Shown: piece by piece, positions 3,544 to 58,321 of the stretch
Layout: every line of letters begins with the position of its first letter
How positions within the stretch are numbered: position 1 is the first letter of the stretch
Virus record (IMG/VR): IMGVR_UViG_3300036790_000811
Coordinates: 1-64,000 of that record
Length of the DNA: 64,000 bases
Reading direction: 5' to 3' (one strand)
DNA from: a virus
Position numbers and translations under genes: made by a program
The notes under the pieces: model-generated
The model's database searches: none
What the model saw: only the letters and a program-made list of their open reading frames with translations
Told to the model about the DNA's origin: nothing

Positions 3544-3547
3544 CTGG

Positions 3548-12778: not shown

Positions 12779-13645
12779 ATGTCTCGCGGACGTCATGCAG
12801 CTCCTTCGGCAACCCGGAAGGCCATATCTGCCGGGGTTTCCGTTACCACCACCACGCTCGCGGCCAGTGCGGTCGCGGCAATAGCGGTGGCAGGGGGTCA
12901 CGCTAGCGCAAGCACGACACAGGCGGCACCTGTCAATCCCGTCAAGGTACAGGCCGACGCTTACGTAGTCCACACGGTTAAAGTCCAGGCGGCCAGTCAC
13001 TACACCGTCAAATCCGGCGACACGCTCTCCGGGATAGCCCAGGCTAATCTCGGAAGTGCCGGCAAGTACGAGTGCCTGGCGGCAGCCAACGGCATTGAGA
13101 ACCCGAATCTCATCTACGTGGGACAGGATCTCGTCCTTGACTGCTCAACGGGCGAGATCAGCCAGCAGCCCGAGAATACTCCCGCAAGCGAGCCGCCATC
13201 CAGTGACTCGTCTACGGATTCGTCTACGGATGAGTCTGCCACGACTCACGATTCTTCCCAAGCGGTATCCACGTCCGGAGACGGGAGCTTCCAGTCCTGC
13301 GTTATTTCCCGCGAGTCGGGCGGTAACCCGGACATCTGGAACGCGAGTGGACATTATGGACTCTACCAATTTTCGGAGAGTACCTGGGAAGCCTACGGCG
13401 GTTCTGCCAGTGATTTCGGCCACGCTAGCGTGGCCGAGCAGAATCAAGTGTTCGAGAACGCTATGGCAACTCCCGGCGGAGAGGGAAATTGGGGTCCTTA
13501 CGATGGATGCTTATGCAATGTGTTAGAATCCTCGTATGGAACGTACGCCACCCCCAGAACCCGGGACCCGTTTCGGGCGCTGGACAGTTACCGGAGAGTC
13601 ATTCATGAGGGATCCGTCGCATCGAGCCATACCGGTTCGTTGTGA
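12779..13645 (+). CDS. secreted LysM + Rpf-type transglycosylase (domain ends at 13510, followed by TTA)
   Basis: GRH signal start; LysM YTVKSGDTLSGIA...NGIENPNLIYVGQ; Rpf-like CVISRESGG...YGLYQFSESTW...EQ...WGPYDGC. Confidence 0.85.
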   Translation: MSRGRHAAPSATRKAISAGVSVTTTTLAASAVAAIAVAGGHASASTTQAAPVNPVKVQADAYVVHTVKVQAASHYTVKSGDTLSGIAQANLGSAGKYECLAAANGIENPNLIYVGQDLVLDCSTGEISQQPENTPASEPPSSDSSTDSSTDESATTHDSSQAVSTSGDGSFQSCVISRESGGNPDIWNASGHYGLYQFSESTWEAYGGSASDFGHASVAEQNQVFENAMATPGGEGNWGPYDGCLCNVLESSYGTYATPRTRDPFRALDSYRRVIHEGSVASSHTGSL

Positions 13646-14153: not shown

Positions 14154-15920
14154 GTAGCCAACGATTTTCCGGTCGGCTGGGATCTCCCTGAGGGATTTGA
14201 GGACTTCCCGGCGGATGTTCAGCGGTACTTCATCGATGAGATGAACAAGCGGATGCCGAAGCCTCCCCGGCCGTGGCATTCGATGGCCCGTCCTAAGCAG
14301 CTTCCCCCGGATCATTCTCGGCATCACCTCGCTGACAAAAACGGCTACCGCTGCCAGTGGAAAGAAAAGGACGGCACCCCCCACGTCTGCACGGGAGATA
14401 AAGACTGGTTCATCTGGCTCTTTCTCGCCGGCCGCATGGTCGGAAAAACGATGACCGGCTCGAACTGGATCCTGGAGGAAGCCCTCAAGTACCCCGGAAC
14501 CCGGTGGGCGGTCGTGGCACCCACGTTCCAGCAGGTTCAGGAAGTCTGCTTTACCGGGGACTCGGGAATCATCGCGCAGGCGCTGCCCGGGGAGATCTCG
14601 GAGTACAACAAGAACGCGATGATGATCGTGCTCCAGAACGGCAGCGAGATCAAGGGGTTCTCGGCCGAGGCTCCGGAACGTATTCGTGGTTACAACTTGT
14701 CCGGCGCGTGGCTGGACGAGGTGGGCTCGTACCGGAATCGCGTCATCTGGGATGAGGCGCTCGGCCCGGCTCTCCGCAAAGGAAATCCCAGGGTTGTCGT
14801 CACGACCACCCCAAGTGGCAGCCCTCTCCTGAGGGAGTGGGTGGAGCGGTTCACCAATGCCGCAAAGAAGGGTGAGCCGTGCGACATCCACCTCACCCCT
14901 GCGCGCTTCAGTGAGAACGACACCATCCCGAAGAAGCAGCTCGAACGTCTTGAGGAGCAGTACGGCGGTACCCGTATCGGGCGCCAGGAACTCGAAGGCG
15001 AGATGCTGGAAGACTTCGAGGGAGCCCTCTGGAAGCGGAGCTTCATCGAGGACCACCGGGTAAACGAGTCGGATTACTTTGACAAGGCCGGCCGCATCAG
15101 GACCGAGCTGTTCGGCCGGATCGTGGTGGCAGTGGACCCGTCGATGACATCCGGCGAGACGTCGGACGAGTCCGGGATCGTCGTCGCGGGAGAAGGCGCC
15201 GACGGCGACGGCTACCTGATCGCTGACTGGAGCGTGCAGGGTACCCCCGAGGAGACCATGCGCCGAGCCGTGGCCGCCTACTACGAGTACCACGCTGACT
15301 GCGTGGTCATGGAGACCAACCAGGGCGGTGACTACCTGGTCAAGGCCCTGCGCGCCGCCGACCCGCATGTCCCTCCCCGGCTGGTTCACGCCTCCAAGGG
15401 GAAGATGATCCGTGCCCAGCCTATTTCCATGCTCGCCGAGCAGGGCAGGCTGCACCATATCGGGTTTTTCCCGAAACTAGAGGACCAGCTTTGTACCCTG
15501 GTTCCCGACGCGTCGCGGAATCAGCACGACGACCGGGCTGACGCGTTTGTCTGGGCGATGACCGAGCTGCGGGGAATTACCGACGGCTCCTACCTGGCCA
15601 CCTATGGCCACAAGTACTGCAAGTCCTGCGGTAAGACCATCCGGACGTCCGCCCGGCTGTGCCCCGGTTGCGGCAAGATGCAGGACAGCAGTGACGACCA
15701 GACCCCCACTGCCGGCAAGTGGGCCGGCGCCTACCTGAACCACTGCAAGAAATGCGGCGAGAATTACCCGCAGCGCTTCAAGAAGTGCCCCACTTGCAAC
15801 CCGACTCCGGAAACCTACATGGCCGCCGTCCAGAAGGCGTCGGGACAAGGGGGAGGCTGGCTATCCTATTCCGGGAGAGACTGGTTCAAGGGAGCAGGCC
15901 TGTTATCAGATGCGAGGTAG
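14154..15920 (+). CDS. terL: terminase large subunit with C-terminal Zn-ribbon extension (first ATG 14241; frame open from 14145)
   Basis: LAGRMVGKT, VVAPT, WLDE, VTTTP, GRQELEG, VAVDP, METNQGG, HDDRADA. Confidence 0.92.
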   Translation, partial: VANDFPVGWDLPEGFEDFPADVQRYFIDEMNKRMPKPPRPWHSMARPKQLPPDHSRHHLADKNGYRCQWKEKDGTPHVCTGDKDWFIWLFLAGRMVGKTMTGSNWILEEALKYPGTRWAVVAPTFQQVQEVCFTGDSGIIAQALPGEISEYNKNAMMIVLQNGSEIKGFSAEAPERIRGYNLSGAWLDEVGSYRNRVIWDEALGPALRKGNPRVVVTTTPSGSPLLREWVERFTNAAKKGEPCDIHLTPARFSENDTIPKKQLERLEEQYGGTRIGRQELEGEMLEDFEGALWKRSFIEDHRVNESDYFDKAGRIRTELFGRIVVAVDPSMTSGETSDESGIVVAGEGADGDGYLIADWSVQGTPEETMRRAVAAYYEYHADCVVMETNQGGDYLVKALRAADPHVPPRLVHASKGKMIRAQPISMLAEQGRLHHIGFFPKLEDQLCTLVPDASRNQHDDRADAFVWAMTELRGITDGSYLATYGHKYCKSCGKTIRTSARLCPGCGKMQDSSDDQTPTAGKWAGAYLNHCKKCGENYPQRFKKCPTCNPTPETYMAAVQKASGQGGGWLSYSGRDWFKGAGLLSDAR

Positions 15921-18866: not shown

Positions 18867-21800
18867 ATGGCTGACAAGCGCCGGGTTGCCGCCGCACTGA
18901 AGTCAATTCCCGGGGCTCGCCCCACGATGGCTCCTCAGTCGTCGGGGTACGGTTCCGCGTCGCCTATCGCGGCGATGATGAACCAGCAGAACCAGTTCGC
19001 CAACTCCTATGGTCCTTTCCTGCCCCGGCCGAGCCAGGTGTTCACCGACGGCGCTTTCGGTCCCATGTCGCCCATTCAGCCGGTGCCGGTGGACAATCCC
19101 CCGCCGGGAGGGGAGTTCGCCGACCCCAGAAGCTGGGAATACCGGGTCGGCTGGAACCTTCCGACTCCTCCGGGGACTGAGGGTCTCAAGCTGGCAAGCT
19201 TCCAGCAGCTGAAGACCCTCAGTGAGAAGTACTGTTTGGCACCAGAAACCCGGGTACTCTGCTCGGACTTCACGTGGCGTCAGCTATCGGACATCAGCGT
19301 GGGTGATGAGCTCATCGCGTTTGACGAAGATCCCCCCGCTCGTGGACTGCACCGTAAGATGCGGTTTGCGACAGTGACGGCGTATGACCGGATTACACGT
19401 CCCTGCTACCGGGTGACACTGACAGACGGTCGTACGGTTGTCGCATCCGCCGAGCATCTATGGCTTGCCGGACGTGACAAGGCGGATGGTTCCTGCGCCT
19501 GCGAAATCTGCGGAAAGCAGTTCGGCCGCGCTCAGGGGCTGGGTGTGCACCGCAGGCAGGTTCACGATATCGAGGGTCAGTGGAAGCACAACAACTTCGG
19601 AGCATGGACGGTGACGGCGCAGCTGCGCCCGGGAAGCACTATCCGTGATCTCGGCTCCCCCTGGGAAGAGGATTTTTCCCGGGAAGCCGGCTATCTCTCT
19701 GGCGTTTACGACGGGGAAGCTTCTCTTAATATCGCGAACGGTAATCATAAAGGCTGGGGAATTGGATTCCCGCAGAATGCTGGTCCGGTTTTCGATGAAG
19801 TAGAAGCCATTCTCAAGCGCAAGGAATATGGTTTTCGGATTCACGGTCCAGGTATTAATGACTCCTGTAAGCATATTACGATCAGCGGGATGCGTGATTG
19901 TTTCCGCTTCATGGGAGAAATGCGCCCTCTTCGTCTTCTAGGAAATGCCAGGAAGTGGATAGAGGGAAATAGCCCTTCCCGTGCTGGATGTGCGACCGTG
20001 GAATCCGTAGAATTCCTGGGCGAGCGAGAGGTAATCGCTGCCGGCACGAGCACGAGCACGCTTATTGCGGAAGGGCTGTTTTCGCACAACAGCGTCGCCC
20101 GCGCCTGCATCGACCTGCGCCAGCAGGAGATCCGTGGTCTCGAATGGGAGATCACGATGACCAAGGAAGCGGCGAAGGCATACCAGAACTCGCACGCCAG
20201 GATGAAGGACTTCGGGGTCCGCGCGGCGGAGGCCACGAAGTTCTTCAAGCGTCCCGATCCGGATTATTGGACGTTCAGCTCGTTCATGAACGCGATGCTG
20301 GAAGAGATCTTCGTCTACGACGCCCTGAGTGTCATCTTCCGTCCCAAGTACGGTGCCAAGTTCGGGCGCGGCGGTCGCGGGCTCCTCGGCAGCGACCTGG
20401 ACTCGCTCCGTCTCATTTCGGGACCGACGATCCGTCCCCTGGTGGACCTGCACGGCAACATCCCCAAGGCTCCGGGGACTCCGGCCTACCAGCAGTACCT
20501 GTACGGCGTCCCCCGCTCGGACTACATGTCCATCCTTCGGGGTGACGACATTGCGGGAACCGTCCTGGCGGGGTCGGAATACAACGAGTTCACCGCCGAC
20601 TTGATGCTGTACGCCCCCTACTGGCCGCGCCGGGAGACCCCCTACGGCTTCCCGCCGATTGAGCGCGCCCTCTTGCCGGTGATCGCCGGGCTTCAGAAGC
20701 AGGAATACCAGCTTGACTTCTTCTCCGAGGGTTCGGTTCCGGCGGTCTATATCTCCCCGGGTGACCCCAATATCACCCCGACGCAGATCAAGGAGCTGCA
20801 AGACGCCCTGAACGGGATCGCAGGGGATCCGGCGTACCACATGAAGGTCGTCGTCCTCCCTCCTGGCTCTAAGGTCGAGCCGCAGAAGCCCGTGGATCTC
20901 GCGGACTCCTTCGACCTGCTCGTTCAGACTCAGGTGTGCATGGCATTCGATTGCCAGCCGGCAGAGCTGGGCATTCTGCCGAACGTGGGCAGCAACCAGG
21001 GCGGTGGCGGAGCCTCGGCCGGTGCCATCCGCCTCGGCATGCAAGAAGCCCGGGACATCAAGTCCCGCAAGTCCACGAAGCCGACCCTGCACTTCATCGC
21101 CAGCATCTTCAACTATATCCTTCAGGATGTCTGCGGCCAGAAGGACATGAAGTTCACCTTCGAGGGCCTCGCCGACGACGAGGACCAGCAGGCGATTACC
21201 GACCTCGGCGTCCAGCAGGTCCAGAACGGTATCGCGTCTATCGATGAGGTCCGGGACCGCCTTGATCTTCCCCCATGGGGCCTGTCCGAGACGTCGGAGC
21301 CGGTGGTCTTCACCGCCCAGGGGCCGATCCCGTTCTCCATGGCCCCGCAGCTCATCGCGAACATGCAGGGACAGAACGGAGGGTCGTCGTCATCCGGGAA
21401 CTCGAACAATGGTACCCAGTCCAGCAATTCCGGGCAGCGCACTTCCTCCTCGCGGACGAGGACGAATCAGCCCTCGGTGCGAGCCGGAGGGCAGACCAAG
21501 CCCAACGGCAGTCATCAGGCGCCGATCGCCCCGCATCGCGAGTCCCTGACGCCCGCACATAGTGCCGCCAGCGGGGCCGTGCAGAGCCCTACTCCCCGAA
21601 CTGGCGGCACCCCTTCGCGATCAAGTGTGGCCGGATCGAGGAAGAAGGCGGTGGAGGCTGAGTTCGGTGCCCTGAAGCGCCACCTCCGCAAGGGCCGGCT
21701 GATTACCACCTGGGAAACGCGGCACATTCCCGAGCGGTCCCTGTCCATGATTTCGGAGGACATCGCCAACGGCCTGCTGATTGACTCCGCCGTGGACCGG

Positions 21801-24014
21801 GCCACCGATTTCGTTCTGAAGGACGAAGAGGACATCTTTGAGCCGATCGTGGCCAAGGCACAGCAGTGGCCGGGCTGGGAGCGCGATCTCGGGCTCGTCG
21901 GTGCCTATAAGCAGCAGATTGAGGGAGCCTTTGCCGTTGCCCAGGCCAAGGGTGAGCAACTGCGCCACAAGGCGGCCAACGGGGGCATGTTCGTCTCCAG
22001 CTCTGCCCTGCGGGGACTCATTTCGGATGAGATGCATGACACTTTCCTGGGGGTTCTCCAGCCTCTGTGGAGCGAAGCGTGGCACCTCGGTTACGAGGCG
22101 GCCAAATCTCTGGTCACGGGCCAGGACGCGGACTTCGCCGTCAAGCACGAGAGCGGTGCGCTCGACGGGTTTATCGACACCCAGGGCGCTCACTGGGCGG
22201 AACAGATCGCCCGGACCGGCCTGAAGAACGAGAACGCCCGGACTGAGGCTATCGCCCGGACCGAAATAGCCCGCGCCGTGAACGCGGCGGCCATCCAGGC
22301 GTACCGGGACTACGGTGTCACCCACAAGCAGCTCATGCTTGCTCCTGATGACGCCTGCGACATCTGCAAGGATGCCGAGGATGAGGGTGTCATCCCGCTG
22401 GACGCGATCTTTCCTCAGGGAGGTCTTGGCGGTCCACTTCATGTTTCGTGCCGATGTGTCCCTGTCGCCGCCGGGATCGAGTTGGAGCCTCCGCAGGGAC
22501 ATCTCGGCAAGAGCCTTCTCGGGGATCTGGCTGCATCCGGTCCCTTTCCTTCCAGTGGGCCCGATCACCCCTACAGGCAGGACGGGCAGTCCGGAGCTGG
22601 CAACTGCGAGTGCGGTCATGCCGCAAGTGCACACGAAGATAAGTCCCGGCTTGCTTGGCTGCTGATGCGCGCCCGGGATGATGACGGCAAGTACCGCTTC
22701 CTGCTCCAGCAGCGGGACGACGGCACCTGGGGTATGCCCGGCGGCACGACTCACGTCGGGGAAGATCCGTGGGACGCCGCTATCCGCGAGTGTACGGAAG
22801 AAGTCGGGGACCTTCCGGGCATGACCGTGGCCGCCACGTTCCACCACGAGGAAGACAATGGCGCTCGCGCCTACGTCTGGATGGTGGACGTTCCCTATTT
22901 CCAGCCGAAGATGAACGGCTCGACTCCCGAGGAGACCCAGGGTGTCGCCTGGTTCCGGCGCAAGGAGATCGACAAGCTTAACCTGACCGGAAAGTTCCGC
23001 GAAGACTGGGAGCAGACGCCCGATATCCGGGAGTACGCCACCAAGAACCAGAACATGGTGAACGAATCCGGTGAGCGACTGGCGATCGTGGACTCCCAGG
23101 CACCGCTGCACGCTTCGGGAGCGCGGTGGCCCTACCCGAACCGGTCGCCGAACGGCTTTCCGATCGAGGACCCGCACTACAACCAGGCACCGGGCGAAAT
23201 GGGAGCCAGCGAGCCTCCCCGCAAGGACCTGGACAGCGATACCCCGACCCGGCTGTACCCCAGGGGTACCGAAGACGAGAAATTCCCGCCCAGGAGGGGA
23301 AAGGGCAAGCCCGCCAAGAAGTTCCCGGAGCAGGGCGACGAACAGTGGCCCGAGACCGAGAACGGCGGAGCGCAATCATCGTCCGCTCAGGTAGGGGGCA
23401 ATACGGGAGTCCCGAAAGCGGGTCCCGTGCCGGCGGTAGGGAGCGTCCCGGCGAAGACGCCGACTCCGATGGCGCCCCGGAGTGTTCCTCCGCAGGTTTA
23501 CGATCCCGCTGACGCGGTGGCGACGGAAGAAGACGGGGAAATCGCGTACTACCCCCAGCCGAAGCCGAAGAAGGGAAAGGGTGCCGCGAATTACACGGAC
23601 CCTTCTCCGGTGGACGCCGAGCACGTATACGTTCAGCTCGCCAGGAATTTCCCACCAAAAGCTATTGCCTGGGTTCAGCGAGCTCGATGGATCGGCCCCA
23701 TCTGGATTCCGTGGGATCGGATTGATACTGACGACCAGGATGAATGGGCCGCCTCCCACCAGCCTGAGCACGTGAAAGATTTCATGCGCCAGATCAAGGA
23801 TCATGACGGCCGGATCGTCCCGTCGGTCCTGGTTCAGGAGCCAGACGGCGGAAAGGCGTTCATCGTAGACGGTCATCACCGTGCTCTCGCCCGGGAAAAG
23901 CTGGAGCAGCCGGTGCTCGCTTATCTCGGGACGATTAACCCGGATGATCGGCAGGCGGCACTGGAAACCCATAGCGCCCAGGTTCATCACGGTGCCGACC
24001 ATGACAATAACTGA
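18867..24014 (+). CDS. portal protein fused to MuF, Nudix and ParB-like domains, intein-interrupted
   Basis: Portal region (PYGFPPIER, DEVRDRLDLPP); MuF IARTE...CDIC...PLHVSCRC; Nudix box GGTTHVGEDPWDAAIRECTEEVG; IVDGHHR. Confidence 0.88.
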   Translation: MADKRRVAAALKSIPGARPTMAPQSSGYGSASPIAAMMNQQNQFANSYGPFLPRPSQVFTDGAFGPMSPIQPVPVDNPPPGGEFADPRSWEYRVGWNLPTPPGTEGLKLASFQQLKTLSEKYCLAPETRVLCSDFTWRQLSDISVGDELIAFDEDPPARGLHRKMRFATVTAYDRITRPCYRVTLTDGRTVVASAEHLWLAGRDKADGSCACEICGKQFGRAQGLGVHRRQVHDIEGQWKHNNFGAWTVTAQLRPGSTIRDLGSPWEEDFSREAGYLSGVYDGEASLNIANGNHKGWGIGFPQNAGPVFDEVEAILKRKEYGFRIHGPGINDSCKHITISGMRDCFRFMGEMRPLRLLGNARKWIEGNSPSRAGCATVESVEFLGEREVIAAGTSTSTLIAEGLFSHNSVARACIDLRQQEIRGLEWEITMTKEAAKAYQNSHARMKDFGVRAAEATKFFKRPDPDYWTFSSFMNAMLEEIFVYDALSVIFRPKYGAKFGRGGRGLLGSDLDSLRLISGPTIRPLVDLHGNIPKAPGTPAYQQYLYGVPRSDYMSILRGDDIAGTVLAGSEYNEFTADLMLYAPYWPRRETPYGFPPIERALLPVIAGLQKQEYQLDFFSEGSVPAVYISPGDPNITPTQIKELQDALNGIAGDPAYHMKVVVLPPGSKVEPQKPVDLADSFDLLVQTQVCMAFDCQPAELGILPNVGSNQGGGGASAGAIRLGMQEARDIKSRKSTKPTLHFIASIFNYILQDVCGQKDMKFTFEGLADDEDQQAITDLGVQQVQNGIASIDEVRDRLDLPPWGLSETSEPVVFTAQGPIPFSMAPQLIANMQGQNGGSSSSGNSNNGTQSSNSGQRTSSSRTRTNQPSVRAGGQTKPNGSHQAPIAPHRESLTPAHSAASGAVQSPTPRTGGTPSRSSVAGSRKKAVEAEFGALKRHLRKGRLITTWETRHIPERSLSMISEDIANGLLIDSAVDRATDFVLKDEEDIFEPIVAKAQQWPGWERDLGLVGAYKQQIEGAFAVAQAKGEQLRHKAANGGMFVSSSALRGLISDEMHDTFLGVLQPLWSEAWHLGYEAAKSLVTGQDADFAVKHESGALDGFIDTQGAHWAEQIARTGLKNENARTEAIARTEIARAVNAAAIQAYRDYGVTHKQLMLAPDDACDICKDAEDEGVIPLDAIFPQGGLGGPLHVSCRCVPVAAGIELEPPQGHLGKSLLGDLAASGPFPSSGPDHPYRQDGQSGAGNCECGHAASAHEDKSRLAWLLMRARDDDGKYRFLLQQRDDGTWGMPGGTTHVGEDPWDAAIRECTEEVGDLPGMTVAATFHHEEDNGARAYVWMVDVPYFQPKMNGSTPEETQGVAWFRRKEIDKLNLTGKFREDWEQTPDIREYATKNQNMVNESGERLAIVDSQAPLHASGARWPYPNRSPNGFPIEDPHYNQAPGEMGASEPPRKDLDSDTPTRLYPRGTEDEKFPPRRGKGKPAKKFPEQGDEQWPETENGGAQSSSAQVGGNTGVPKAGPVPAVGSVPAKTPTPMAPRSVPPQVYDPADAVATEEDGEIAYYPQPKPKKGKGAANYTDPSPVDAEHVYVQLARNFPPKAIAWVQRARWIGPIWIPWDRIDTDDQDEWAASHQPEHVKDFMRQIKDHDGRIVPSVLVQEPDGGKAFIVDGHHRALAREKLEQPVLAYLGTINPDDRQAALETHSAQVHHGADHDNN
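19233..20090 (+). mobile_element. intein (286 aa) with LAGLIDADG-like motif
   Basis: KY|CLAPETRV...ASAEHLW...YLSGVYDGEAS...IAEGLFSHN|S. Confidence 0.9.
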
Positions 24015-24565
24015 GAAGCTCCTGCTTCCAGATAGTCCACCATGGCCTGCAGTCTTTTGATGTCATCTTTTACCCATCCAAGAATCAGGTTGCAGTCTTT
24101 ACAGAGAAGGCCTCGAATCTTTCCTGACTCATGGCAGTGGTCGATCGACATCCTGGCGGTCTTATTGCCGCATATGTCGCAACCATCTCCAGCTCGGCGC
24201 CGCGCCTCTACCTTGAGCCCGTCTGGGCCATAGATTCGGCGTACACGTGCGACTCGCTGGTTTTGGAGACTGCGTTCTTTGTTTGCGTGATGCCACTCCA
24301 GGGAGTTCTTGGACATGCATCGTTTACAGATGCGCTGTCGTTTGTCCCGGTAACGTATGTTTTTCCCGAATCCTTCAATCGGTTTTTCTTCGTCGCATCG
24401 AGTGCACGTTCGCTTGGTGTCGCCTAGCACCACGGGCGCCGGGGCTCTAGAGATGAACACGTCCCCATATGTCATGAATCTTCGATAGTGGAGTCGGCAG
24501 TAGCCCCTCGCGACGTGCGGCCGAACGCAGTCGGGGACATCGCATTTCCTTTCTTTTGGTGTCAT
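23987..24565 (-). CDS. endonuclease VII-like homing endonuclease (HEG2)
   Basis: CDIC...IDHCHESGKIRGLLCKDCNLILG. Confidence 0.85.
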   Translation of the reverse strand: MTPKERKCDVPDCVRPHVARGYCRLHYRRFMTYGDVFISRAPAPVVLGDTKRTCTRCDEEKPIEGFGKNIRYRDKRQRICKRCMSKNSLEWHHANKERSLQNQRVARVRRIYGPDGLKVEARRRAGDGCDICGNKTARMSIDHCHESGKIRGLLCKDCNLILGWVKDDIKRLQAMVDYLEAGASQLLSWSAP

Positions 24566-24602
24566 AAATTCAATCTTAGCAAAGAAGGTGAGGTGATGTA
24601 GG

Positions 24603-24925
24603 ATGGTCGAGAAGTCTGAGCAGACTCCGACGCTTAGCAGCGAGCATCACCCTCTCGGAAGGGAGGGCTTGTGGCGCACTCCAAGTAAGCGCGTTCCGGA
24701 GAAACAGCAGCTTCCGGCTTATTTAACATCCAGAACATCGCCCGCGCCCTCATGAGAGACCAGGGCATGGATGAATCGCAGGCCATCGCCACTGCCGTCA
24801 ATGCGGTGAAGCGCTGGGCGCAGGGCCATCTCGGGGAAGGCGGAGGCCAGGTGCACCCTGAAGTGGTAGCCGCCTCCCGTGCTGCGCTTGACGAATGGCG
24901 CAAGCTCCGGGAAGAACATCAGTGA
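24603..24925 (+). CDS. head-module protein interrupted by a frame break at TTA 24723 (recoded gene)
   Basis: MVEKSEQ...QQLPAY | TTAAC | IQNIARALMRDQGMDESQAIATAVNAVKRWAQG...; GAGGTG SD; ends in a GTGA overlap with the next gene. Confidence 0.7.
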
Positions 24926-25137
24926 AGCGCCACACTAAGCAGATCCGCAAGCGCCGGGAACGAGCCGAACGCGCGTTGATCGAACTCGCTCTCGCGCTTG
25001 ACAAATGTGATTCTCTCGGGGTAAAACTTGAACATGGAATAGCCGTGTCCAGATACGGTTATGTGATCCCGTTCAAGAAAGGCTGGGGCGTCCGCATGAT
25101 GGCGGAGTCCGGCCGCGACGAAGACTACTTCGACTAA
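24922..25137 (+). CDS. small basic hypothetical protein
   Basis: GTG start KRHTKQIRKRRE. Confidence 0.55.
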   Translation: MKRHTKQIRKRRERAERALIELALALDKCDSLGVKLEHGIAVSRYGYVIPFKKGWGVRMMAESGRDEDYFD

Positions 25138-25146
25138 TGACTTTCC

Positions 25147-25168
25147 AGCCCGCTTTGCGGGCTTTTTT
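25147..25168 (+). terminator. intrinsic terminator
   Basis: AGCCCGC-TTT-GCGGGCT followed by TTTTT. Confidence 0.7.
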
Positions 25169-25191
25169 GATGCCCGTACCCATGGAGGCGT

Positions 25192-27975
25192 GTGGCTGCC
25201 ACTCTGACTAATGACAACGAGATCCTCTACAGCAGCTTCCCGATCGAGAAGACCGAGACGACTGAAGACGGGGACCTGATTGTCTACGGCAAGGCGTCAG
25301 ACGGCGGCCTGGACTCCGACAGTCAGATCGTAGATCCCAAGTGGATGGCGAAGGCGGCTCAGGAATGGCTGAGTACGGGCGGCAATCTTCGGGTGCAGCA
25401 CTCGGCGCAGCGCGATCCTGCCGGGGTTGGCCTGGAAGCCACAACCGACGACTCAGGGAGTACGTGGGTTAAGGGGCTTGTTGTCGAGCCGGTTGCCCAG
25501 AAGCTTGTCAGCAAGGGCGCACTTCGTGCTTACTCGGTGGGTATTGCCCGTCCGACTATTACGCGAGACGCTTCTGCCCCGGGAGGCCGGATCATCGGCG
25601 GCGAGCTCGTAGAAATTTCGCTTGTAGACAGGCCCGCTAACAAGCGATGCGGAATCCAGCTCGTGAAGTCCGCGAGTGACGGTACTCCTGAATATGTCGG
25701 TGAGGTCTTCGGCTCCGAGGAGGACATCTCCAAGGCCCTGGGCGCGGATACCGTCAAGAACTACGACGCTGACGGGGAAGTCCCCGAGTCTTCCATTCCG
25801 CTGGCACAGGACACGGTGTTCTCGTTCACGCCGAACGACCTGGCGAAGATCGTCAAGTCTAAGGTCATCGAGGAACACTACGCCGAGCTGGCGATGAAGG
25901 CCATCGGTGATGCGGAATACGAAATTCTCGGTAAGGATCACCGCGAGTTCACCACTGATCGCCGCAAGGATCTTGCCGGACAGGGCAATGCCCTTCCGGA
26001 TGGCAGTTACCCCATTCCCGATAAGGACGCCCTTCGTCGTGCCGCCATCCTGGCGCGCTCCGGGCACGGAAACGCAGCGGCAGCGCGCCGCCTGATTGCC
26101 CGTAGGGCGAAGGAGCTTGGTGTGGCAAATCCGCTCGACGCGGACGACAAGGTCAAGAACGAGGATGTGACGACCGCCCCCGTGGCTGAGCCGGAGGTTC
26201 CCAAGGAGGCGGACGCGGACGTCACGAAGGACCCCGCCGACGGTGACGGTCCCGGCCCGGTGGACAAGAAGAAGCCGAAGAAGGGCAAGAACGGGAAGCC
26301 CCTTCCGCCCTGGCTCCAGGACAACAAGGGCAACTCCAAGTCCGGTGACTCGCCGTCGAACAAGCAGGACAACTCCGGTGACGGGGATGACGCTGACGAC
26401 GATGACGACGACAAGAAAGACATGGACTGCAAGCTCCAGCACACTCACACCGAGAAGTGCCACCCGAGCGGCACTCCGCAGAGCACCTCTGGCGCCAAGG
26501 ACTCTCCCCCGATGAAGGAGATCCCGGACCCGGGCGCGGCGGAGTACACCCCCATGCCTGCCGGGCGGGCGACAGAACACCACAAGGGCGCCAACCCGGA
26601 GCAGGTCGCACTCATGCGCTTCAAGAGCGTGGGCATGGATCCCGACCTCGGCCGTCTTCACGACCTGACCTGTGCCGCGTTCCACCCGGAGGACGTCGCC
26701 AAGTATCACCCGTTCGCGGATTTCGCTTCCACGATCGACACCGGGGTCTGGCAGCGCAAGGCCGTAGACGCGGCCTGCGGCCCGCTGGACCAGGCGATGG
26801 CGATGACCCAGGTGTGGCAGGCGGCGGAGACGCTCAAGGGCGCCGACCTGGCTGACCTCAACGACTACCGGCTGGCGCTGCACAAGGCGTTCCGGGACGC
26901 GAATCCCGGGCCGTCCAGCTATCCGTCGCCGGGCTCCATTTCGCCGGACCGTTACAACCGGCCGCTGATCACGGACGGGCACGAGACGTCGTCGCCCGGA
27001 CATGACGGACCGAACTCCTCTCCCGACGTCGCTTCGCACGCGCCGTCCGGCGGGGACCATTTCGACCGCCCCCCGCTGGGGGAGGGTCATCAGTCGCCGT
27101 CCCCCTCGTTCATGAAGGGCGGCTTCCCGTACCCGACTGAGCAGGGCGTGCCGACCAAGGTCCCCTTCGCCCACGCCGAGAAGGAGCGCGCCCGTCAGGC
27201 TCTGAGCCTGATGCACGATCATCTCGCCCGGATGTTCCCGAGTGCCTGCCCCATGCATGAGCAGGACCCTCACCGCGTTGACCAGCGCCCGGCGGTGCCG
27301 GAGCCGGTCGGCAAGACGGTAGAGCCGGAGGCTCAGGCCGAAGCGGTGAGCAAGTCCGAGACTCCCGGGAACGTCTTCAAGGCGGAAGTCGGCGACGACG
27401 AGGTCATCAAGGGCATTCGCAAGAAGCTGGCCAAGAAGGTTCTGAGCGGCAAGCTGACCGTGGACGAGGCGCGCGCCAAGCTGGGCCGCGCTCGTGCCCA
27501 GAAGTCTGACGAGCCCGACGAGAACGTCGTCAAGGGCCTGTTCGAGACCGGGAAGATCACCCGGGAAGAGGCGCTCAAGCAGCTGGGACTCCAGGAGCCG
27601 GCGGCTCCCGCTCCCGCTGTCAAGGCAGCCGTCCCCGACGTCCCGACTCTTACCCCGGACATCATCAAGTCCGCGATTACGGAGGCTATCGCCCCGATCG
27701 CGCAGGAGCTGGCCAAGGCCAGGGAAACGATCGATGAGCAGCAGAAGGCTCTCGACGTCCTGGCTGACCAGCCCGACCCGAGCACCGCCGCGTTTGCTGG
27801 AATCGCGGTGAATAAGTCGAGTCGCCCGGCGGGCGTCCCGACCCAGGCTGAGATCGCGGAGCGAACTCAGACGATGGTTATGCGGCAGCTCGACAGGGCT
27901 TACCGCACCAGCGAGAACCCCGCAGAGCGGGAAGCCGCCTTCCAGGCGCTTAGCAAGTACCGCGCATTTGAGTAA
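25192..27975 (+). CDS. prohead protease / scaffold fusion
   Basis: IVYGKASD...RVQH...YSVGI...EISLVDRPAN; ALPDGSYPI module; long acidic/Pro-rich scaffold-like tail. Confidence 0.85.
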   Translation: MAATLTNDNEILYSSFPIEKTETTEDGDLIVYGKASDGGLDSDSQIVDPKWMAKAAQEWLSTGGNLRVQHSAQRDPAGVGLEATTDDSGSTWVKGLVVEPVAQKLVSKGALRAYSVGIARPTITRDASAPGGRIIGGELVEISLVDRPANKRCGIQLVKSASDGTPEYVGEVFGSEEDISKALGADTVKNYDADGEVPESSIPLAQDTVFSFTPNDLAKIVKSKVIEEHYAELAMKAIGDAEYEILGKDHREFTTDRRKDLAGQGNALPDGSYPIPDKDALRRAAILARSGHGNAAAARRLIARRAKELGVANPLDADDKVKNEDVTTAPVAEPEVPKEADADVTKDPADGDGPGPVDKKKPKKGKNGKPLPPWLQDNKGNSKSGDSPSNKQDNSGDGDDADDDDDDKKDMDCKLQHTHTEKCHPSGTPQSTSGAKDSPPMKEIPDPGAAEYTPMPAGRATEHHKGANPEQVALMRFKSVGMDPDLGRLHDLTCAAFHPEDVAKYHPFADFASTIDTGVWQRKAVDAACGPLDQAMAMTQVWQAAETLKGADLADLNDYRLALHKAFRDANPGPSSYPSPGSISPDRYNRPLITDGHETSSPGHDGPNSSPDVASHAPSGGDHFDRPPLGEGHQSPSPSFMKGGFPYPTEQGVPTKVPFAHAEKERARQALSLMHDHLARMFPSACPMHEQDPHRVDQRPAVPEPVGKTVEPEAQAEAVSKSETPGNVFKAEVGDDEVIKGIRKKLAKKVLSGKLTVDEARAKLGRARAQKSDEPDENVVKGLFETGKITREEALKQLGLQEPAAPAPAVKAAVPDVPTLTPDIIKSAITEAIAPIAQELAKARETIDEQQKALDVLADQPDPSTAAFAGIAVNKSSRPAGVPTQAEIAERTQTMVMRQLDRAYRTSENPAEREAAFQALSKYRAFE

Positions 27976-32000: not shown

Positions 32001-32100
32001 CGGAACTGTCCCGTTAAAGGCGTAGTGTAATTCCCGAACAGCGAGAGACTCCTGGCACTGCCCTCGTGCCAGGAGTCTCTTCCAGGAAAGGGTTATGTGA

Positions 32101-33105
32101 GTGAAGATCTTCGTGACCGGCATCGCCGGTTTTCTCGGGGCGCACATTGCTCGTGAGGCGATAGACCGGGGCTGGGAAGTCACCGGGATCGACAGCATGC
32201 TCTCGGCGGTTGACGATACGCTTGAAGGTGCCGAATGGAAGAGGACGGACTGTCGAGATGCCGACAGTTATGCGGATCTGATTCACGATGTAGATGTCGT
32301 TTATCACTGCGCAGCAGCTCCCTATGAGGGACTTTCGGTCTTTTCTCCCCAGATCGTTTTCGAGAACACCCTGCTTTCTACCGTTGGTCTTCTCCGGGCG
32401 TCGGTGAATGCTGGAGCGCGCCGATTCATCTTCGCTTCCTCCATGTCCCGTTACGGTCATGGAGCACCCCCTTTCACTGAAGAGACGTCGTCGGTCCCCG
32501 TTGATCCATACGGAGTGGCGAAGGTCTCGGCCGAGAACGCAGTGAAGAACATCTGTGACCTGCACGGCCTGGAATGGGTCATCGCAGTTCCGCATAACGT
32601 CTACGGCCCCGGCCAGCGATACTGGGATCCGTACCGCAATGTTCCGGCGATTATGGTCAATCGGGTGTTGCAGGGCAAGCCGCCGGTCGTCTACGGAAAC
32701 GGTTCACAACGCCGGTCACTGTCCTATGTGGCCGATGTCAGTGTCCCGATGATCGCCATGGCGGATCACCCTCACGCTCCCGGCGAGATCTTCAACGTGG
32801 GACCCGGCGGGGCGGGTGTTACGATCGCAGAGCTGGCGGAGAAGATCATCCGGCTGGCGAACGTGGACTTCGATCCCGAGTACTATCCTGATCGTCCGAG
32901 TGAGGTGCGCTACGCCTTCTGTTCAGACGAGAAGACCCGGAACGTTCTCGGCTATGAGTGCCAGTGGACCCTGGAGGCGGGACTGGAGAAGCTTATCGCC
33001 TATATCGCCGAAAAGGGTCCCCGGCCGTTTGACTACCATCTCCCGCTGGAGATCACCAATACTCCGCTTCAGACGCCGCGTACGTGGACCGAGAGACTGA
33101 TGTAG
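32101..33105 (+). CDS. NAD-dependent epimerase/dehydratase
   Basis: IFVTGIAGFLG, PYGVAK (YxxxK), HNVYGPG. Confidence 0.92.
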   Translation: MKIFVTGIAGFLGAHIAREAIDRGWEVTGIDSMLSAVDDTLEGAEWKRTDCRDADSYADLIHDVDVVYHCAAAPYEGLSVFSPQIVFENTLLSTVGLLRASVNAGARRFIFASSMSRYGHGAPPFTEETSSVPVDPYGVAKVSAENAVKNICDLHGLEWVIAVPHNVYGPGQRYWDPYRNVPAIMVNRVLQGKPPVVYGNGSQRRSLSYVADVSVPMIAMADHPHAPGEIFNVGPGGAGVTIAELAEKIIRLANVDFDPEYYPDRPSEVRYAFCSDEKTRNVLGYECQWTLEAGLEKLIAYIAEKGPRPFDYHLPLEITNTPLQTPRTWTERLM

Positions 33106-40187: not shown

Positions 40188-40775
40188 ATGCCCTTGGTGG
40201 TGGTCCAGTCGTTCATCAAGGGTCTTCTCGACGGACTCGAAATGCCGTACTCTCAGCCGGCTGCCCAGACGTACGTCACCCCCCCCGATCCCCGGATTCA
40301 GTCTCGCATTCCCGCCATCTACATCTGGCCAGGGGAGGGCGAGGAAAACCGCTCCCAGGAACTCGGCGGTACGATCCCCCGCAATAGTGGCCCGAACACC
40401 CCTTCCGGGACCAAGGGCCAGCTGCACCAGATGAGCGTTTACCTCACCTGGTTCTCGGCCAATCAGGGCACCGAGGGCGACCCGATCTTTCCCGGGATGA
40501 TCGACGCGGTGATGAGCGCCCTGAGATACTCCCAGCCGAACCCGGCGGAGATTACCGACCCGAATACGGGACTCACGTCCACGGTCTACAACGTGGGCGA
40601 GACGATGCGCTATCACACAGGGCTGGAATCCACCGAGGATGAGCGCTGGCTCAGATACGACTGTCTTGTGGACGTGTCGGTCTGGGAAATTATGCAAGCG
40701 TTATCCGTTAACTGGAGGCGTGTGAACACAGGGACCATTACGGTCACAGGAATTTCAATTAGGAGCGTGATCTGA
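40188..40775 (+). CDS. tail terminator-like protein (likely natural end WEIMQA, then TTA at 40701)
   Basis: Lies directly before the major tail gene; IPAIYIWP. Confidence 0.65.
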   Translation: MPLVVVQSFIKGLLDGLEMPYSQPAAQTYVTPPDPRIQSRIPAIYIWPGEGEENRSQELGGTIPRNSGPNTPSGTKGQLHQMSVYLTWFSANQGTEGDPIFPGMIDAVMSALRYSQPNPAEITDPNTGLTSTVYNVGETMRYHTGLESTEDERWLRYDCLVDVSVWEIMQALSVNWRRVNTGTITVTGISIRSVI

Positions 40776-45590: not shown

Positions 45591-45628
45591 AGTAGTCCAC
45601 CTTACGCGAAGGAAGGAGGTGAACCAGC

Positions 45629-54800: not shown

Positions 54801-55347
54801 GTTCGGGGACCAGCCGGGACAGCTGCCGTTCGAGAACGACACCAGCTTCGCGGTAGACAACCAGTTCATCTTCAACGTGGTCAACGCGACCCAGCAGCGC
54901 GGTCCTAACCAGGACCTGTTCATCCAGGAAAACAATTTCCAGAGCCAGAACCAGTTCTTCATGCGCTCCGGGATCAGCTACCAGTCGTACGCGATGCTGC
55001 CGTTCGACGTCAGCGACCTGGTGAACTGGTCGGTCGCCAAGTACCAGGAACCCCACGACCGGGTGGTCCAGGTCACCATTGACGTGGCCGGGGTCCAGGC
55101 GTCCAACTCGGCATTGTTCCCGACCATTCTCTCACTGGAGCTGAATCAGACGATCACGGTGACGAGAACCCCGATCGGGGGCAGCCAGATATCCCTGACC
55201 GGGGTTATCCAGCAGATATCGCACGAATTCGGGGCCGCGAGCTGGAAGACCACCCTCGAAGTGACTCCTTTGATCCCGGAAGCCAATGCCCTGATCGCGG
55301 ATAATACAGGTAATGACACTCCGGGATCGAGCTTTTTGGCGTGGTAG
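51826..55347 (+). CDS. minor tail/baseplate protein with LamG-like domain
   Basis: WTDISQY...VKRGRQYEL; FAVEFWF; SEGG. Confidence 0.75.
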   Translation: MGFTAVGTIFDNGNGNSTFSVSPQAVGDILLVEIIVSGSSSITVTALLGGGVTTWTKIASYAGTSNAATGSVWMGTVTTTGSAVGIPTFSGGTSGDFLEMAGQEYSSTTGAMFAQAAYLDTSFTGNMPSLTPSGAGQMYFCFASDNGIASPGSTTGYVYQLDATGNGLAYNQNCTSGVSTHPVWTDGNLSFGIAVLISGSGSGSNTATGSLTITPQMNAQAAPGGSAQAALTVTPGFLAVASGGSGALSIAQIVPGNVINDYGLDNVPFTVNTPGTGTMLAAFIGWNAAASTAQSSGKAPAVNVTDSAGNLWRQAGITAVDPLARCALWVADNPRQTEWVSVALTGWGYSTAYTIVELDGVPSSLGQISLDFVSPVTTDTPVTTLTIPSQTASTSDLVLGVVTTGGPGGPLTVPTGWTGIQAVGGATSGDVTTYSVYRQSSAGAVTLAPSWANSVPASGVMAGIRITSAAPVQPNPNFPAIRVEAAFGATPGDWTQSVDYTYDIGGLAWTDISQYTTDEEGQSTISVKRGRQYELSQEETGTLEVQLDNHTGIFTYSNTASTFYPNVIPGTPLRVTAWFGGVQYPVGFGYAEKWPQEWPKMPQWGFSRVTATDAYGPLAACNLFSAVISEIRKDSPYAYFPTTEQYEFTTQSLDPVQAPLDANGLIAANYAFGNNRFGAYRDGYDQPVTVGQALNLMGDQNTTLGATTYTGQEVNDNGPGMFYFDNGIPTNASGKSFAVEFWFAWGNTSSFACTMLSAWASPSSFFTVATSTTPPSAGGVLTVGINTPAEGNTLEAGFFVNGTEISGGTFNQDTYAPQHFVLNVAGTNVTAYLNGVQQPNTPSVATIPMIRAFALGPARFSYDVSGMVVYNGYNYISGHAAWYSHALNPTVISNHYESGATGFVGDPAPGRFAQVLTWGGLGLKRGGTAWYNTYGNYEGTFMSEAYDYDGSSAADIMSQITQSEGGRCYIQANGSIVYAYRWSLYDQPVVAQFGDQPGQLPFENDTSFAVDNQFIFNVVNATQQRGPNQDLFIQENNFQSQNQFFMRSGISYQSYAMLPFDVSDLVNWSVAKYQEPHDRVVQVTIDVAGVQASNSALFPTILSLELNQTITVTRTPIGGSQISLTGVIQQISHEFGAASWKTTLEVTPLIPEANALIADNTGNDTPGSSFLAW

Positions 55348-56018
55348 CGCATCTTGGAGTAGTGCGGATAGCAGAGACCCTTGCCATAGTGCGCCTTTTC
55401 GCAACCCGGTTCCGTGCAACGGCGGGCGTTGGGATTGTTTTTCTGGTTGCGATTGTAGTGGTTCTTGCACAAACCCCTGGCGTACGCCGCTTTCTCGCAC
55501 TCAGGTTCTTCGCAGCGAGGAGAATCCGGGTTGGATAGTTTCTCTTCTATGTAATCCCGGTGCCGCTCTCGGCGACACTTTCGACATACTCGATCACCCT
55601 TTTGGCCTATATACGTATTGTCGCTTGTATATGGATGACCCCGAGGACATTCAATTATGTTCTTGCGGATTCCATGTTGAATGTCATCGAGAAGGTTCTC
55701 TTTGTAGGTTCCGTATGCAAGATTGGAAAGTCTGTTATCGGCAGGATTTCCGTTGAGATGCCGAGAAACGATGCTTTTAGGTTTAGGACCCACAAAGGCA
55801 TCCAGGACGATGCGGTGCACGAGTCTGACTATTCCCCTTCCGTTTCGGTGAAGGGTAACTCGGAGATGACCGCTCGGATTCGGAGTCGGCCTAAGATAGG
55901 GCCAGTCTGTACCGCGAGGACCCTTGCGGTAGACGAGACGTTTCACGCGTCCGTAGTCTGATACTGCATAAAACTCTTCATAGTCCACCACTGGAAGCCA
56001 GCGCTCCTGATCCGCCAT
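55146..56018 (-). CDS. NUMOD4-HNH homing endonuclease (HEG6)
   Basis: MADQERWLPVVDYEEFYAVSDYG...VHRIVLDAFVGP...RHLNGNPADN. Confidence 0.88.
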   Translation of the reverse strand: MADQERWLPVVDYEEFYAVSDYGRVKRLVYRKGPRGTDWPYLRPTPNPSGHLRVTLHRNGRGIVRLVHRIVLDAFVGPKPKSIVSRHLNGNPADNRLSNLAYGTYKENLLDDIQHGIRKNIIECPRGHPYTSDNTYIGQKGDRVCRKCRRERHRDYIEEKLSNPDSPRCEEPECEKAAYARGLCKNHYNRNQKNNPNARRCTEPGCEKAHYGKGLCYPHYSKMRYHAKKLDPGVSLPVLSAIRALASGIKGVTSRVVFQLAAPNSCDICWITPVRDIWLPPIGVLVTVIV

Positions 56019-56051: not shown

Positions 56052-58321
56052 GTGCCAATCTCCCCTTCCAGCTATGCGACGAACACTCCCATAACTGCGC
56101 ACCAGCTTTTAACCAGGATTTTTACAGCATAGATGGCAGTGCATTCAATGCCACGGGAACAAGCTTTCACGCTAACCGCCCCCTGCTGGTAGAGACTTTC
56201 ATCAAGGCGGGAGCGCAGGCTACCGCCCCTACGGGGGGAGCACCCAGCTTCCTCGGCGGGGTGAACGGGGACGCCATCTCGGTGATCGACAACGCTGCCC
56301 TGTACGGGACCGGCGCGGACGGGGTCGGCAACGAGGCGAGATTCAACTCCGGCGGGGCTGTTGCTCCCGGCTCGGCGGGGATCTCGGGCCAGTACGGCGG
56401 CTGGAACCTCATGTTCGCGTTCGTCCCGATCTCCAAGTTCCCGGTCGCCGGGGGCATGTACGGCGTGGAGTGGAACGACTCCGCCATCACCGGCAATCCT
56501 CCGGCTGACATCGGCTGCATGCAGCCCGCCAGCACGGTCTACAACAACGCCGGCTTCGCCTGCGACATGGTCGAGCTCGTCCCCCCGCTCTACAGCGCGG
56601 ACTGGGGTCCGTCGGTCTACGCACTGAGCCCGACCGCTACCAGGATCCCGCTGGTGGTCAACACCGTCACGACGGTAGGCCAGACCCCGCGCTTCACCCA
56701 GATCTGGACCGGCGTCCTGAACGGCTACGGCACGCCGGTAAGCACGGTGCCGTCCCCGATGACGGTGATCACCGGGCTGACGACACTCAGCAGCTCGGCA
56801 CTGAACGCCACGATCAACCAGAGCCTGAACCTGCTCAACTACCCCCCGATGCTGGACGTGACGGTCCAGTCCACGGCGCCGATCAACGCCAGCTCCGTGA
56901 CGACCGTGCCGTTCAGCAACACCCCGGTTGAAGACAACTACAGCGGCTACAACGTCTCTGCCCGCACCTACACGGTGCCGTTGTCCGGACTGTACTTCAT
57001 GCACGCGAACCTGATCTACAGCCCGGCCTTTACCGTGGGAACGGCGATCGCCGGGTTCGACGTCAACGGGGCCATCCGGTGGGGAGGGGCCTACGCGGCG
57101 ACCCCGAGTGCCAACCAGAACACCGGGGCCTCGGTCACCAAGCTGTTCGACCTGAACGCCGGGGACACTGTCCAGGTCATCACCGCCACCAGCGTGGCGG
57201 CAGCCTTCGGCAGCGCGAACTACAGCCACTTCATCATGAACTGGATGGGCGCGCTCAACAGCAGCACCCAGCACTGGAAGCCGCCGAACGTCACGGGCTT
57301 CCAGTTCACCGCCGGGATGCCCCCCGAGTCGGTCACGAACATCGTCCAGAACTCCTACTTCACGGCCGGGACGAGCAAGTGGAGCGGCTTCAACGGGTCG
57401 TTCACCGTGACCTCAAGCCCGGCCGCCGGGGCACCGTATCCCAATGCCGGCGTCTACGTGAACAACGGGTCGGCGTCCGGGGCGATGGAAGGCGGGGGGA
57501 CATTCCAGGTCGATCCCACCGAAGTGGTCTACCTGGACGCGTGGACCTGGACCTCGGGAACGGTAATCCAGGCCGGGTTCGACTTCCTGAACAGCGGGAC
57601 CTACGTCACGTCGGTGCTGTCCAACTTCACCGTGCCGACCCAGACGTGGAAGCTGGTCAGCCTGCCCGTTACCGCCCCCTCGTCGGCCATCAACAGCGCC
57701 TACGCCCGGGTGGGAACCCCGTCCGGGAGCGGTGCCACGATCCAGACGCAGGCGATCCTGGCAGGCTTCCAGAGACCTCTCGCGCCCCAGCTGAACGAGA
57801 AGATCGCCAACGACCTCAACTTCCTCATCAACCGCCCGTACCTGATGGCCCGCCAGACGACGGCAACCTCAGGGACGGTGAATACCGCCATCACGGTGCC
57901 GATGCAGACCGCGACGGGACTGATCCACAGCACCTTCGGGGACAACTACGGCGGCTGGAACGGCACCGCCTACACCGCCCAGGTTCCGGGCTGGTACCTG
58001 GCGGTCGAGGAAATCGGCGCGGCCACCCGCTCGACGGCGAATTCCGGCGACAGCCTGACGGCGGGCTTCTCGGTCCCCACTAGCGGCGGGGTAAACGCTC
58101 CCACGACCCCCCAGGCGATGCCGGACTGGTACCAGCAGATCCAGGTGGCCGGGAGCTGGACTTATCCCACGGCGGCGACGGCGATCGGCGCCTACTACCT
58201 CAACACCGGGGAATCCATCTCCCCCAGTGCGCGGTACCAGTCGGGCACGGCGACCAGCTGGACGACGGACACCTCGCACAGCTTCAATGGGCAGTTCAGC
58301 CTCATCTATTTGAGTTCGTAG
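56052..58321 (+). CDS. minor tail protein with a frame break at TTA 56109 (recoded gene)
   Basis: SD AGGAGG 9 nt before GTG 56052; MPISPSSYATNTPITAHQL | TT | NQDFYSIDG; C1q/CBM-like beta domains. Confidence 0.7.

Follow-up and report, generated by a model that had tools for sequence, protein, structure and literature searches.

Short TTA-initiated gaps in two phage virion genes beside free-standing endonuclease genes: candidate immunity elements probably crossed by ribosome bypassing

Two interrupted virion genes and the endonuclease genes beside them

The DNA analysed here, referred to as the window, is a 64,000-nucleotide (nt) stretch covering positions 1 to 64,000 of the IMG/VR virus record IMGVR_UViG_3300036790_000811, a 76.5-kb sequence from soil with a G+C content of about 62%. 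Its late genes lie on the plus strand, with several endonuclease genes on the minus strand in between. Two of the virion genes, a small head-module gene (24603-24925) and a minor tail protein gene (56052-58321), are broken by 5 and 2 extra nt, respectively, and upstream of each lies the start of a free-standing homing endonuclease gene (HEG) on the opposite strand, HEG2 in the first case and HEG6 in the second. The features at the two sites are as follows (SD, Shine-Dalgarno sequence; GC3, G+C content at third codon positions; aa, amino acids).

24603..24722, plus strand: small head-module gene, coding segment before the gap, 40 codons running from an SD-preceded ATG to the take-off codon TAT (Tyr)
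24723..24727, plus strand: coding gap 1, TTAAC, placed by DNA alignment to intact homologues
24728..24925, plus strand: downstream coding segment of the small gene, IQNIARAL...EEHQ and then a stop, in frame +2 relative to the upstream segment
23987..24565, minus strand: HEG2, endonuclease VII-type His-Me finger HNH protein of 192 aa (PF02945, E=2.4e-18; PHROG endonuclease VII, E=1.9e-30)
56052..56108, plus strand: minor tail protein gene, coding segment before the gap, GTG with SD, 19 codons ending in the take-off codon CTT (Leu)
56109..56110, plus strand: coding gap 2, TT, where homologues have an unbroken HQL-NQD
56111..58321, plus strand: downstream coding segment of the tail gene, NQDFYSIDGS... 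to the stop, GC3 0.90 in frame
55146..56018, minus strand: HEG6, NUMOD4 plus HNH_3 with C-terminal Zn-finger repeats (Pfam; PHROG HNH endonuclease)

In the small head-module gene, frame 0 runs from ATG 24603 to ...KQQLPAY and then through TTA ACA TCC... to a stop at 24753-55, and frame 2 (IQNIARAL...) is open to 24925. At two related IMG/VR loci, L004 and L005, a single unbroken protein of about 97 aa reads ...QQLPAYIQ(S/N)I..., and DNA alignment shows that the window has exactly 5 nt more (TTAAC) between TAT and ATC than either of them; tblastn matches to the small protein start exactly at the I of IQNIARAL. The first three bases of the gap form a 0-frame TTA, and the last three, AAC, match the Tyr take-off codon at two of three positions. 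An SD-like GGAG lies 21 nt upstream of gap 1 and is carried by the gap-free alleles too.

Translation of the tail gene from GTG 56052, 8 nt after AAGGAGG, gives MPISPSSYATNTPITAHQL, followed by TTA and a 0-frame stop at 56130-32, and the long frame (NQDFYSIDGS...) resumes at AAC 56111. All 25 homologues that include the N-terminus of the tail protein read ...TAHQLNQD(L/F)... without interruption, among them P0006 at 92% identity, from which it follows that the window has 2 extra nt (TT, 56109-10). Together with A56111 these form a 0-frame TTA, and the overlapping TTT (56108-10) nearly matches the take-off codon CTT. The predicted 759-aa open reading frame (ORF) of the tail gene starts with a false N-terminus; as gene callers mis-annotate gap genes in this way and break the small gene into two pieces, phage metagenomes probably contain more gaps of this kind than have been reported.

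HEG2 encodes an N-terminal Zn-ribbon (CxxC...HY). Its site is empty in L004, L005, 12 further loci and a relative found in two additional soil studies (X3/X6), and is occupied in L056 by a HEG that is 66% identical to HEG2. The match of HEG6 to the PHROG HNH endonuclease family has E=6.8e-55 for 55348-56018, and its ORF extends with its 3' part into the upstream tail gene, the end of which is at 55347; L011 carries a HEG that is 58% identical to HEG6 at the same site, which lacks one in about 15 relatives. Both thus display the hallmark of free-standing HEGs, an intergenic nuclease ORF that is sporadic among otherwise syntenic relatives, and an internally deleted HEG relic in L007 fits their gain-and-decay cycle. 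The start codons of HEG and target gene are 37 nt (HEG2) and 33 nt (HEG6) apart. An earlier note on this sequence had described both frame breaks as TTA micro-insertions of 2-5 nt close to divergent HEG starts, and the alignments bear this out: compared with intact homologues, the insertions are of exactly 5 nt at site 1 and 2 nt at site 2, and they lie 158 nt and 91 nt, respectively, from the HEG start codon.

Co-occurrence of gaps and endonuclease genes among relatives

The tail gene was surveyed at about 18 distinct loci from IMG/VR and JGI metagenomes, and the small gene at 17 loci; L011 and L020 do not differ at all in the 3 kb compared, L007 is the same contig as L016, and L056 the same as L076. 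Tail-family gaps occur only in the window, L011 and L007. The L011 gene reads TAT[TTAC]GAC where others have TAT GAC (YDG motif), with a HEG present, and L007 reads TAT[TTAA]GAC beside a HEG reduced to a 74-nt relic that joins its first and last codons. At the 15 tail loci that lack a HEG the N-terminus is intact, and the upstream tail gene ends ...W-stop 5-25 nt before the ATG. Small-family gaps are confined to the window, L056 and L077. L056 has TTAAC at the same codon as the window, but after TAC, and L077 has an 8-nt gap, GAC[TTAAAGGC]TAT, one codon upstream of the window gap site, beside a fragment homologous to the N-terminal Zn-ribbon of HEG2. The remaining 14 small-gene loci have an intact gene and no HEG at the site, and the X3/X6 relative, about 90% identical to the window at the nucleotide level downstream of the gap, lacks both HEG2 and the 5 nt.

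For both families together, a HEG or its relic is found at six of six gap loci and at none of the approximately 29 gap-free loci. The association between gap and HEG is strong, in line with the earlier note, which had proposed that the micro-insertion would co-occur with the HEG among related phages. The six gap loci represent four independent gap origins (of 5, 8, 2 and 4 nt), each starting with TTA: TAT/TAC[TTAAC]ATC in the window and L056, GAC[TTAAAGGC]TAT in L077, CTT[TT]AAC in the window, and TAT[TTAA or TTAC]GAC in L007 and L011. The distance from gap to HEG start codon ranges from 91 to 163 nt overall, and two homologous HEGs pair with gaps 24 nt apart in one gene. All gaps sit inside conserved motifs, and the conservation profile places the tail gap in a local peak of nucleotide conservation. 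That the gap in L007 has been kept beside a 74-nt HEG relic is expected if a gap is harmless once bypassed.

In L011 (4456-4461) and L007 (4924-4929) the cassette abuts TGG, the last sense codon of the upstream tail gene, whose stop is replaced by TTA, the antisense of the HEG's own TAA stop. The upstream tail ORF thereby runs on for about 42 codons in L007 and about 130 in L011; either these C-terminal tails are made, or UUA may end translation there as well.

Comparison of gap-bearing genes across lineages shows that both halves are open and conserved. Between the window and L056, the proportions of nonsynonymous (pN) and synonymous (pS) differences in the small gene are 0.28 and 0.67 upstream of the gap and 0.19 and 0.78 downstream of it; between L007 and L011, the corresponding values for the tail gene are 0.23 and 0.57 upstream and 0.35 and 0.60 downstream, and the gap-bearing lineages are near-saturated at synonymous sites. 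TTAAC is identical in the window and L056 despite the change in the flanking Tyr codon (TAT vs TAC), and where the small gene differs from that of the X3/X6 relative, the changes are at third codon positions in the downstream frame. Purifying selection on both sides of the gaps argues for expression as one protein, and the pattern, hard to square with pseudogenes, implies that one protein is made across the gap. A contig in an independent Logan assembly, X1, which may nevertheless be the source sample (127.7 kb, depth 44, soil), is identical to the window over 23500-25500; the presence of the gap in this assembly, together with the same TTAAC at the same codon in the diverged L056, indicates that the gap is not an assembly error. 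No truncated 0-frame products were found among 5.8 billion proteins searched.

Proposed decoding of the gaps and rival explanations

The rarest sense codon in the 24 structural genes of the window is TTA, which occurs twice among 12,690 codons, 889 of them Leu codons. At all six gap loci a 0-frame TTA directly follows the last conserved codon. The triplet immediately before the point of resumption matches the take-off codon at two or more of three positions at all six loci: UAU/UAC to AAC (window site 1 and L056), GAC to GGC (L077), CUU to UUU (window site 2), UAU to UAA (L007) and UAU to UAC (L011). These matches between take-off and landing triplets favour a short hop by re-pairing of the peptidyl-tRNA. 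The sole in-frame TTAs of the 24 structural genes, at 15903-15905 in the terminase gene and at 40701-40703 in gene 40188-40775, lie 6 and 25 codons before the respective stops, a placement that fits UUA being tolerated only where the downstream sequence is dispensable. A U_UUA site for a -1 slip was considered as a common signal and rejected: the window holds no excess of the hexamer TTTAAC (5 copies against 6.8 expected), and neither L056 nor L077 conserves it. In six of eight gaps examined, the +1 frame reads TAA (TTAA). ORF junctions at TTA were also sought without reference to homologues, but in DNA of such high GC spurious ORFs swamped the output and the scan was abandoned.

We consider the best explanation, with a probability of about 0.55, to be that each gap is the immunity half of a free-standing HEG cassette and is read through by short bypassing triggered by UUA. 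An HNH endonuclease gene would settle between two genes, directly ahead of a conserved virion gene, whose first 20-40 codons would come to carry an insertion of 2-8 nt. In the DNA, the insertion would break the recognition or cleavage site of the nuclease, so that the carrier genome is spared by its own enzyme. In the mRNA, the ribosome would stall because its A site, positioned over UUA, stays empty; the peptidyl-tRNA, until then paired with the codon before UUA (UAU/UAC-Tyr, CUU-Leu or GAC-Asp), would leave that codon, slide 2-8 nt and re-pair with a near-cognate triplet (AAC, UUU, UAA/UAC or GGC), and decoding would resume in the new frame to yield the ancestral, uninterrupted protein. Both the hopping and the protection from cleavage are steps that we infer from comparison of the gap-bearing and gap-free alleles.

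Two known systems resemble parts of this scheme. In phage T4, the insert in gene 60 protects against nicking by MobA (bioRxiv 2022.08.31.505936, Manning & Atkins; PMC5009743), and the mobA/gene 60 cassette is attributed to Bonocora et al. 2011, as cited in PMC5009743. As there, a free-standing HEG of the HNH family adjoins a conserved gene with an insert that HEG-free relatives lack, some tens of nt into the downstream gene; the T4 insert is nuclease-protective and skipped by ribosomes, two properties that we propose for the gaps described here. The analogy that the earlier note had drawn to mobA/gene 60 therefore holds in its functional logic but not in its anatomy. The gaps here are of 2-8 nt, compared to 50 in T4 (20 in one clade); T4 gene 60 has GGA as both take-off and landing codon and a stop after take-off, whereas here the codon after take-off is UUA; and folding revealed no take-off stem-loop that exceeded shuffled controls, nor does anything point to a nascent-peptide signal. 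The nucleases, of the endonuclease VII and NUMOD4-HNH_3 types, differ from the T4 enzyme as well, as do the target genes and the setting in high-GC soil phages.

The mechanistically closer precedent is UUA bypassing in phiHau3. The terminase genes of this Streptomyces phage and of the StrepC.1 and S. catenulae prophages contain UUA-initiated gaps of 7 and 10 nt that are bypassed (PMC10732093, Antonov et al. 2023); such bypassing has been proposed to occur when the cognate tRNA is lacking, with partial experimental support consisting of a junction peptide detected by mass spectrometry in E. coli and a full-length product in Streptomyces, and the gaps have been interpreted as a bldA-dependent sensor for the lysis/lysogeny decision (PMC10732093). 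When re-read in L057 (NC_018836), the phiHau3 gaps are GGC[...]GGT-AAG and TCT[TTAAC...]TCC-ACG, and the second of them (L057 2924-2933, TCT[TTAACGGTCC]ACG) has the T-TTA-AC context of both window gaps. UUA bypassing in the phiHau3 and prophage terminase genes is also credited to Smith et al. 2013. In phiHau3 as in the present loci, a short block with an in-frame UUA at its start, absent from homologues, lies in a conserved motif of an essential late gene between related take-off and landing triplets. Unlike the gaps described here, those of phiHau3 are of 7-10 nt, have perfectly synonymous take-off and landing codons and no adjacent endonuclease gene; ours are of 2-8 nt, mostly with a landing match of two in three, interrupt head and tail genes and are without exception accompanied by a HEG or its relic, and, unlike in the phiHau3 proposal with its 5' stem-loop and SD-like stimulators, no RNA structure beyond shuffled controls was seen. 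The arrangement would thus share its logic with mobA/gene 60 and its decoding with phiHau3, and by sequence and anatomy it belongs to neither. Comparable in a further respect are 'savior' or 'problem' indels, such as that in the G-run of herpesvirus thymidine kinase, which are compensated by low-level frameshifting (PMC5009743): there, too, an indel advantageous at the DNA level is tolerated since translation partly restores the frame, but by homopolymer slippage, at low yield and in a non-structural enzyme, whereas here structural virion proteins and a rare-codon signal are involved.

Several observations weigh against the combination of immunity and bypassing. HEG4, HEG5 and HEG7 of the window adjoin unbroken genes, as judged from ORFs alone, and the HNH genes of L005 and L070 adjoin genes that are intact by comparison of their N-termini with homologues, so a gap is not an obligatory companion of an endonuclease gene. 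The gap loci are partly redundant, given the identity of L011 and L020 over 3 kb and the single contig behind L007 and L016. The landing triplet is perfect in L011 alone and matches at two of three positions at the other five loci, and gap 1 requires re-pairing of Tyr-tRNA on AAC with a mismatch at the first position. RNA folds of five gaps and two gap-free alleles did not exceed shuffled controls (z -1.5 to +1.1), and scarcity of tRNA-Leu(UAA) in the host is deduced from phage codon usage alone. Finally, gap 1 lies off the nucleotide-conservation peak of its gene, which is 30-50 nt upstream; overall, the conservation profile is neutral.

An unlikely alternative keeps the link between gap and HEG and restores the frame by single-step frameshifting, with 0-2 extra residues in the product. 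The +2-class gaps would be crossed by a +2 or -1 shift (skipping UU, or decoding UUA and then slipping) and the 4-nt gaps by a +1 shift once UUA has been read, at AGA or CGA, both of them rare Arg codons. Indeed, all four +2-class gaps have the form NNY-UU-AAN, so that skipping UU alone restores the frame, both window sites have U-UUA-AC, and in L007 and L011 UUA precedes AGA or CGA, the +1 frame there reading GAC, an arrangement resembling Ty3-type +1 sites (PMC5009743). The U_UUA context is not conserved, however: L056 and L077 have C-UUA, so that a -1 slip on U_UUA is unlikely to operate at all sites. Frameshifting would also add residues within motifs that are free of indels among homologues (LPAYIQ, YDGSY), an argument also used for Hau3, and it would reduce the near-cognate landing triplets to coincidence. 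Slightly less probable again is that the UUA gaps act mainly as regulatory sensors, as modelled for Hau3 (PMC10732093), such that the virion proteins are made only when tRNA-Leu(UAA) (bldA-type) is uncharged or absent; the HEG link would then be secondary, the nuclease having created the indel or the gap having hitch-hiked. The lack of an endonuclease gene beside the phiHau3 terminase gene and the persistence of the L007 gap without a functional HEG accord with this idea, but all four gap origins lie near a HEG or relic (within about 160 nt) and nowhere else in the 24 structural genes, and about 29 HEG-free relatives manage without a sensor in the same genes.

The remaining explanations dispense with recoding. 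That the genes are simply broken, endonuclease cuts having been repaired in an error-prone way in proviruses that are defective or lineages that are dying out, seems improbable: IMG/VR classes the record as a provirus with a completeness of 68%, and the indels do adjoin nuclease genes, but both halves are open and under purifying selection across near-saturated lineages in which the gap sequence is conserved, a gap starting with TTA arose four times although random indels would not all start with the rarest codon, and the virus forms a 127.7-kb contig at depth 44 in soil. We regard as very improbable that the genes are split, with an upstream peptide and a re-initiated downstream protein made separately and working together or alone. 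In the window, frame 2 of the tail gene is open back to ATG 56045 and the small gene has an internal ATG at 24752; ATG 56045, however, overlaps the SD and would swap the conserved 19-residue N-terminus for an unrelated sequence, ATG 24752 comes after the conserved IQNIARAL motif, and the first post-gap start in L007 would drop about 36 conserved residues. The least credible possibility, to which we attach hardly any weight, is a sequencing or assembly artefact, or correction at the RNA level by transcriptional slippage or editing. Nothing specific speaks for it beyond the T3-T4 runs that adjoin the gaps, which are too short for known slippage; the 4-, 5- and 8-nt gaps are not homopolymeric, the IMG/VR and Logan assemblies agree on the gap, and gaps recur in diverged genomes from other metagenomes.

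A broader proposal, which we advance tentatively and at somewhat less than even odds, is that any insertion of a few nucleotides with UUA first and a near-cognate landing triplet last is a minimal, structure-free bypass signal in high-GC phages, one that HEGs routinely exploit to carry their immunity with them. UUA gaps without a neighbouring HEG, such as the 'orphan' ones of the phiHau3 terminase gene, would in that case be footprints of past endonuclease invasions, not purpose-built sensors, which offers an alternative origin for them, and UUA would serve in late phage genes as a 'skip or stall' signal in place of a Leu codon, a role that could also cover the replacement of a stop by TTA through HEG insertion in L007 and L011. 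To our knowledge, the case for programmed bypassing has so far come from the well-studied T4 gene 60 family, yeast mitochondrial 'byps' and one tentative case in a Streptomyces phage. The present loci would add at least four independent natural gaps of 2-8 nt, each with gap-minus alleles and a proposed rationale in HEG self-immunity, and they make the minimal sequence for a ribosome hop directly testable. They would also extend to very different phages the idea behind mobA/gene 60, namely that recoding is what a genome pays for immunity to the nuclease.

Genome context and host clues

The left flank of the HEG2 insertion is formed by a giant fusion gene, the 3' end of which overlaps that of HEG2 by 28 nt:

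18867..24014, plus strand: portal-MuF-NUDIX-ParB-like fusion gene (Pfam Phage_portal, Phage_Mu_F, NUDIX)

It is a single ORF of 1715 aa that includes a C-terminal ParB-like (GHHR) domain. Homologous C-termini were found in L004, L005 and L056, and L004, L056 and L077 have the same architecture. In L005 (5154-5990, minus strand) and L070 (about 3197-3700, minus strand), a different HNH gene lies between the small genes and a gene for a protease/scaffold-capsid fusion.

The best host clue in the window is the gene at 12779-13645, which encodes LysM and an Rpf-like transglycosylase (PF06737), a domain typical of Actinobacteria; there are also distant matches to Microbacterium and Streptomyces phages, and together the Rpf-type lysin and these actinophage matches suggest an actinobacterial host. 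Searches of 50,697 cultured phage records with the locus and the tail protein (blastn, tblastn) returned no match, the small protein having only a distant domain match, and a search of genome contigs with both gene families found no prophage relatives by which a host could be assigned. ARAGORN predicts genes for tRNA-Arg(TCT), tRNA-Met, tRNA-Thr(CGT) and two irregular tRNA-like sequences on the minus strand beyond the window (G000 69164-75173), and no tRNA-Leu(UAA) gene in the phage record. The phage hence brings its own decoder for the rare AGA codon and none for UUA.

Further endonuclease genes in the window, identified by Pfam and PHROG matches, lie at 42143-42721, 44997-45590 and 58302-58880. 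A 193-aa ORF at 32014-32595 (minus strand) was rejected as an endonuclease gene, as it lacks any endonuclease signature and is antisense to an epimerase/dehydratase gene; the latter, at 32101-33105 on the plus strand, is NAD-dependent epimerase/GDP-mannose dehydratase-like and part of a sugar-modification block amid the structural genes. HEG5 (endonuclease VII-type; 44997-45590, minus strand) separates a 162-aa ORF from the tape-measure gene (region 44512-45647) and occupies the usual place of the frameshift extension of tail-assembly chaperones.

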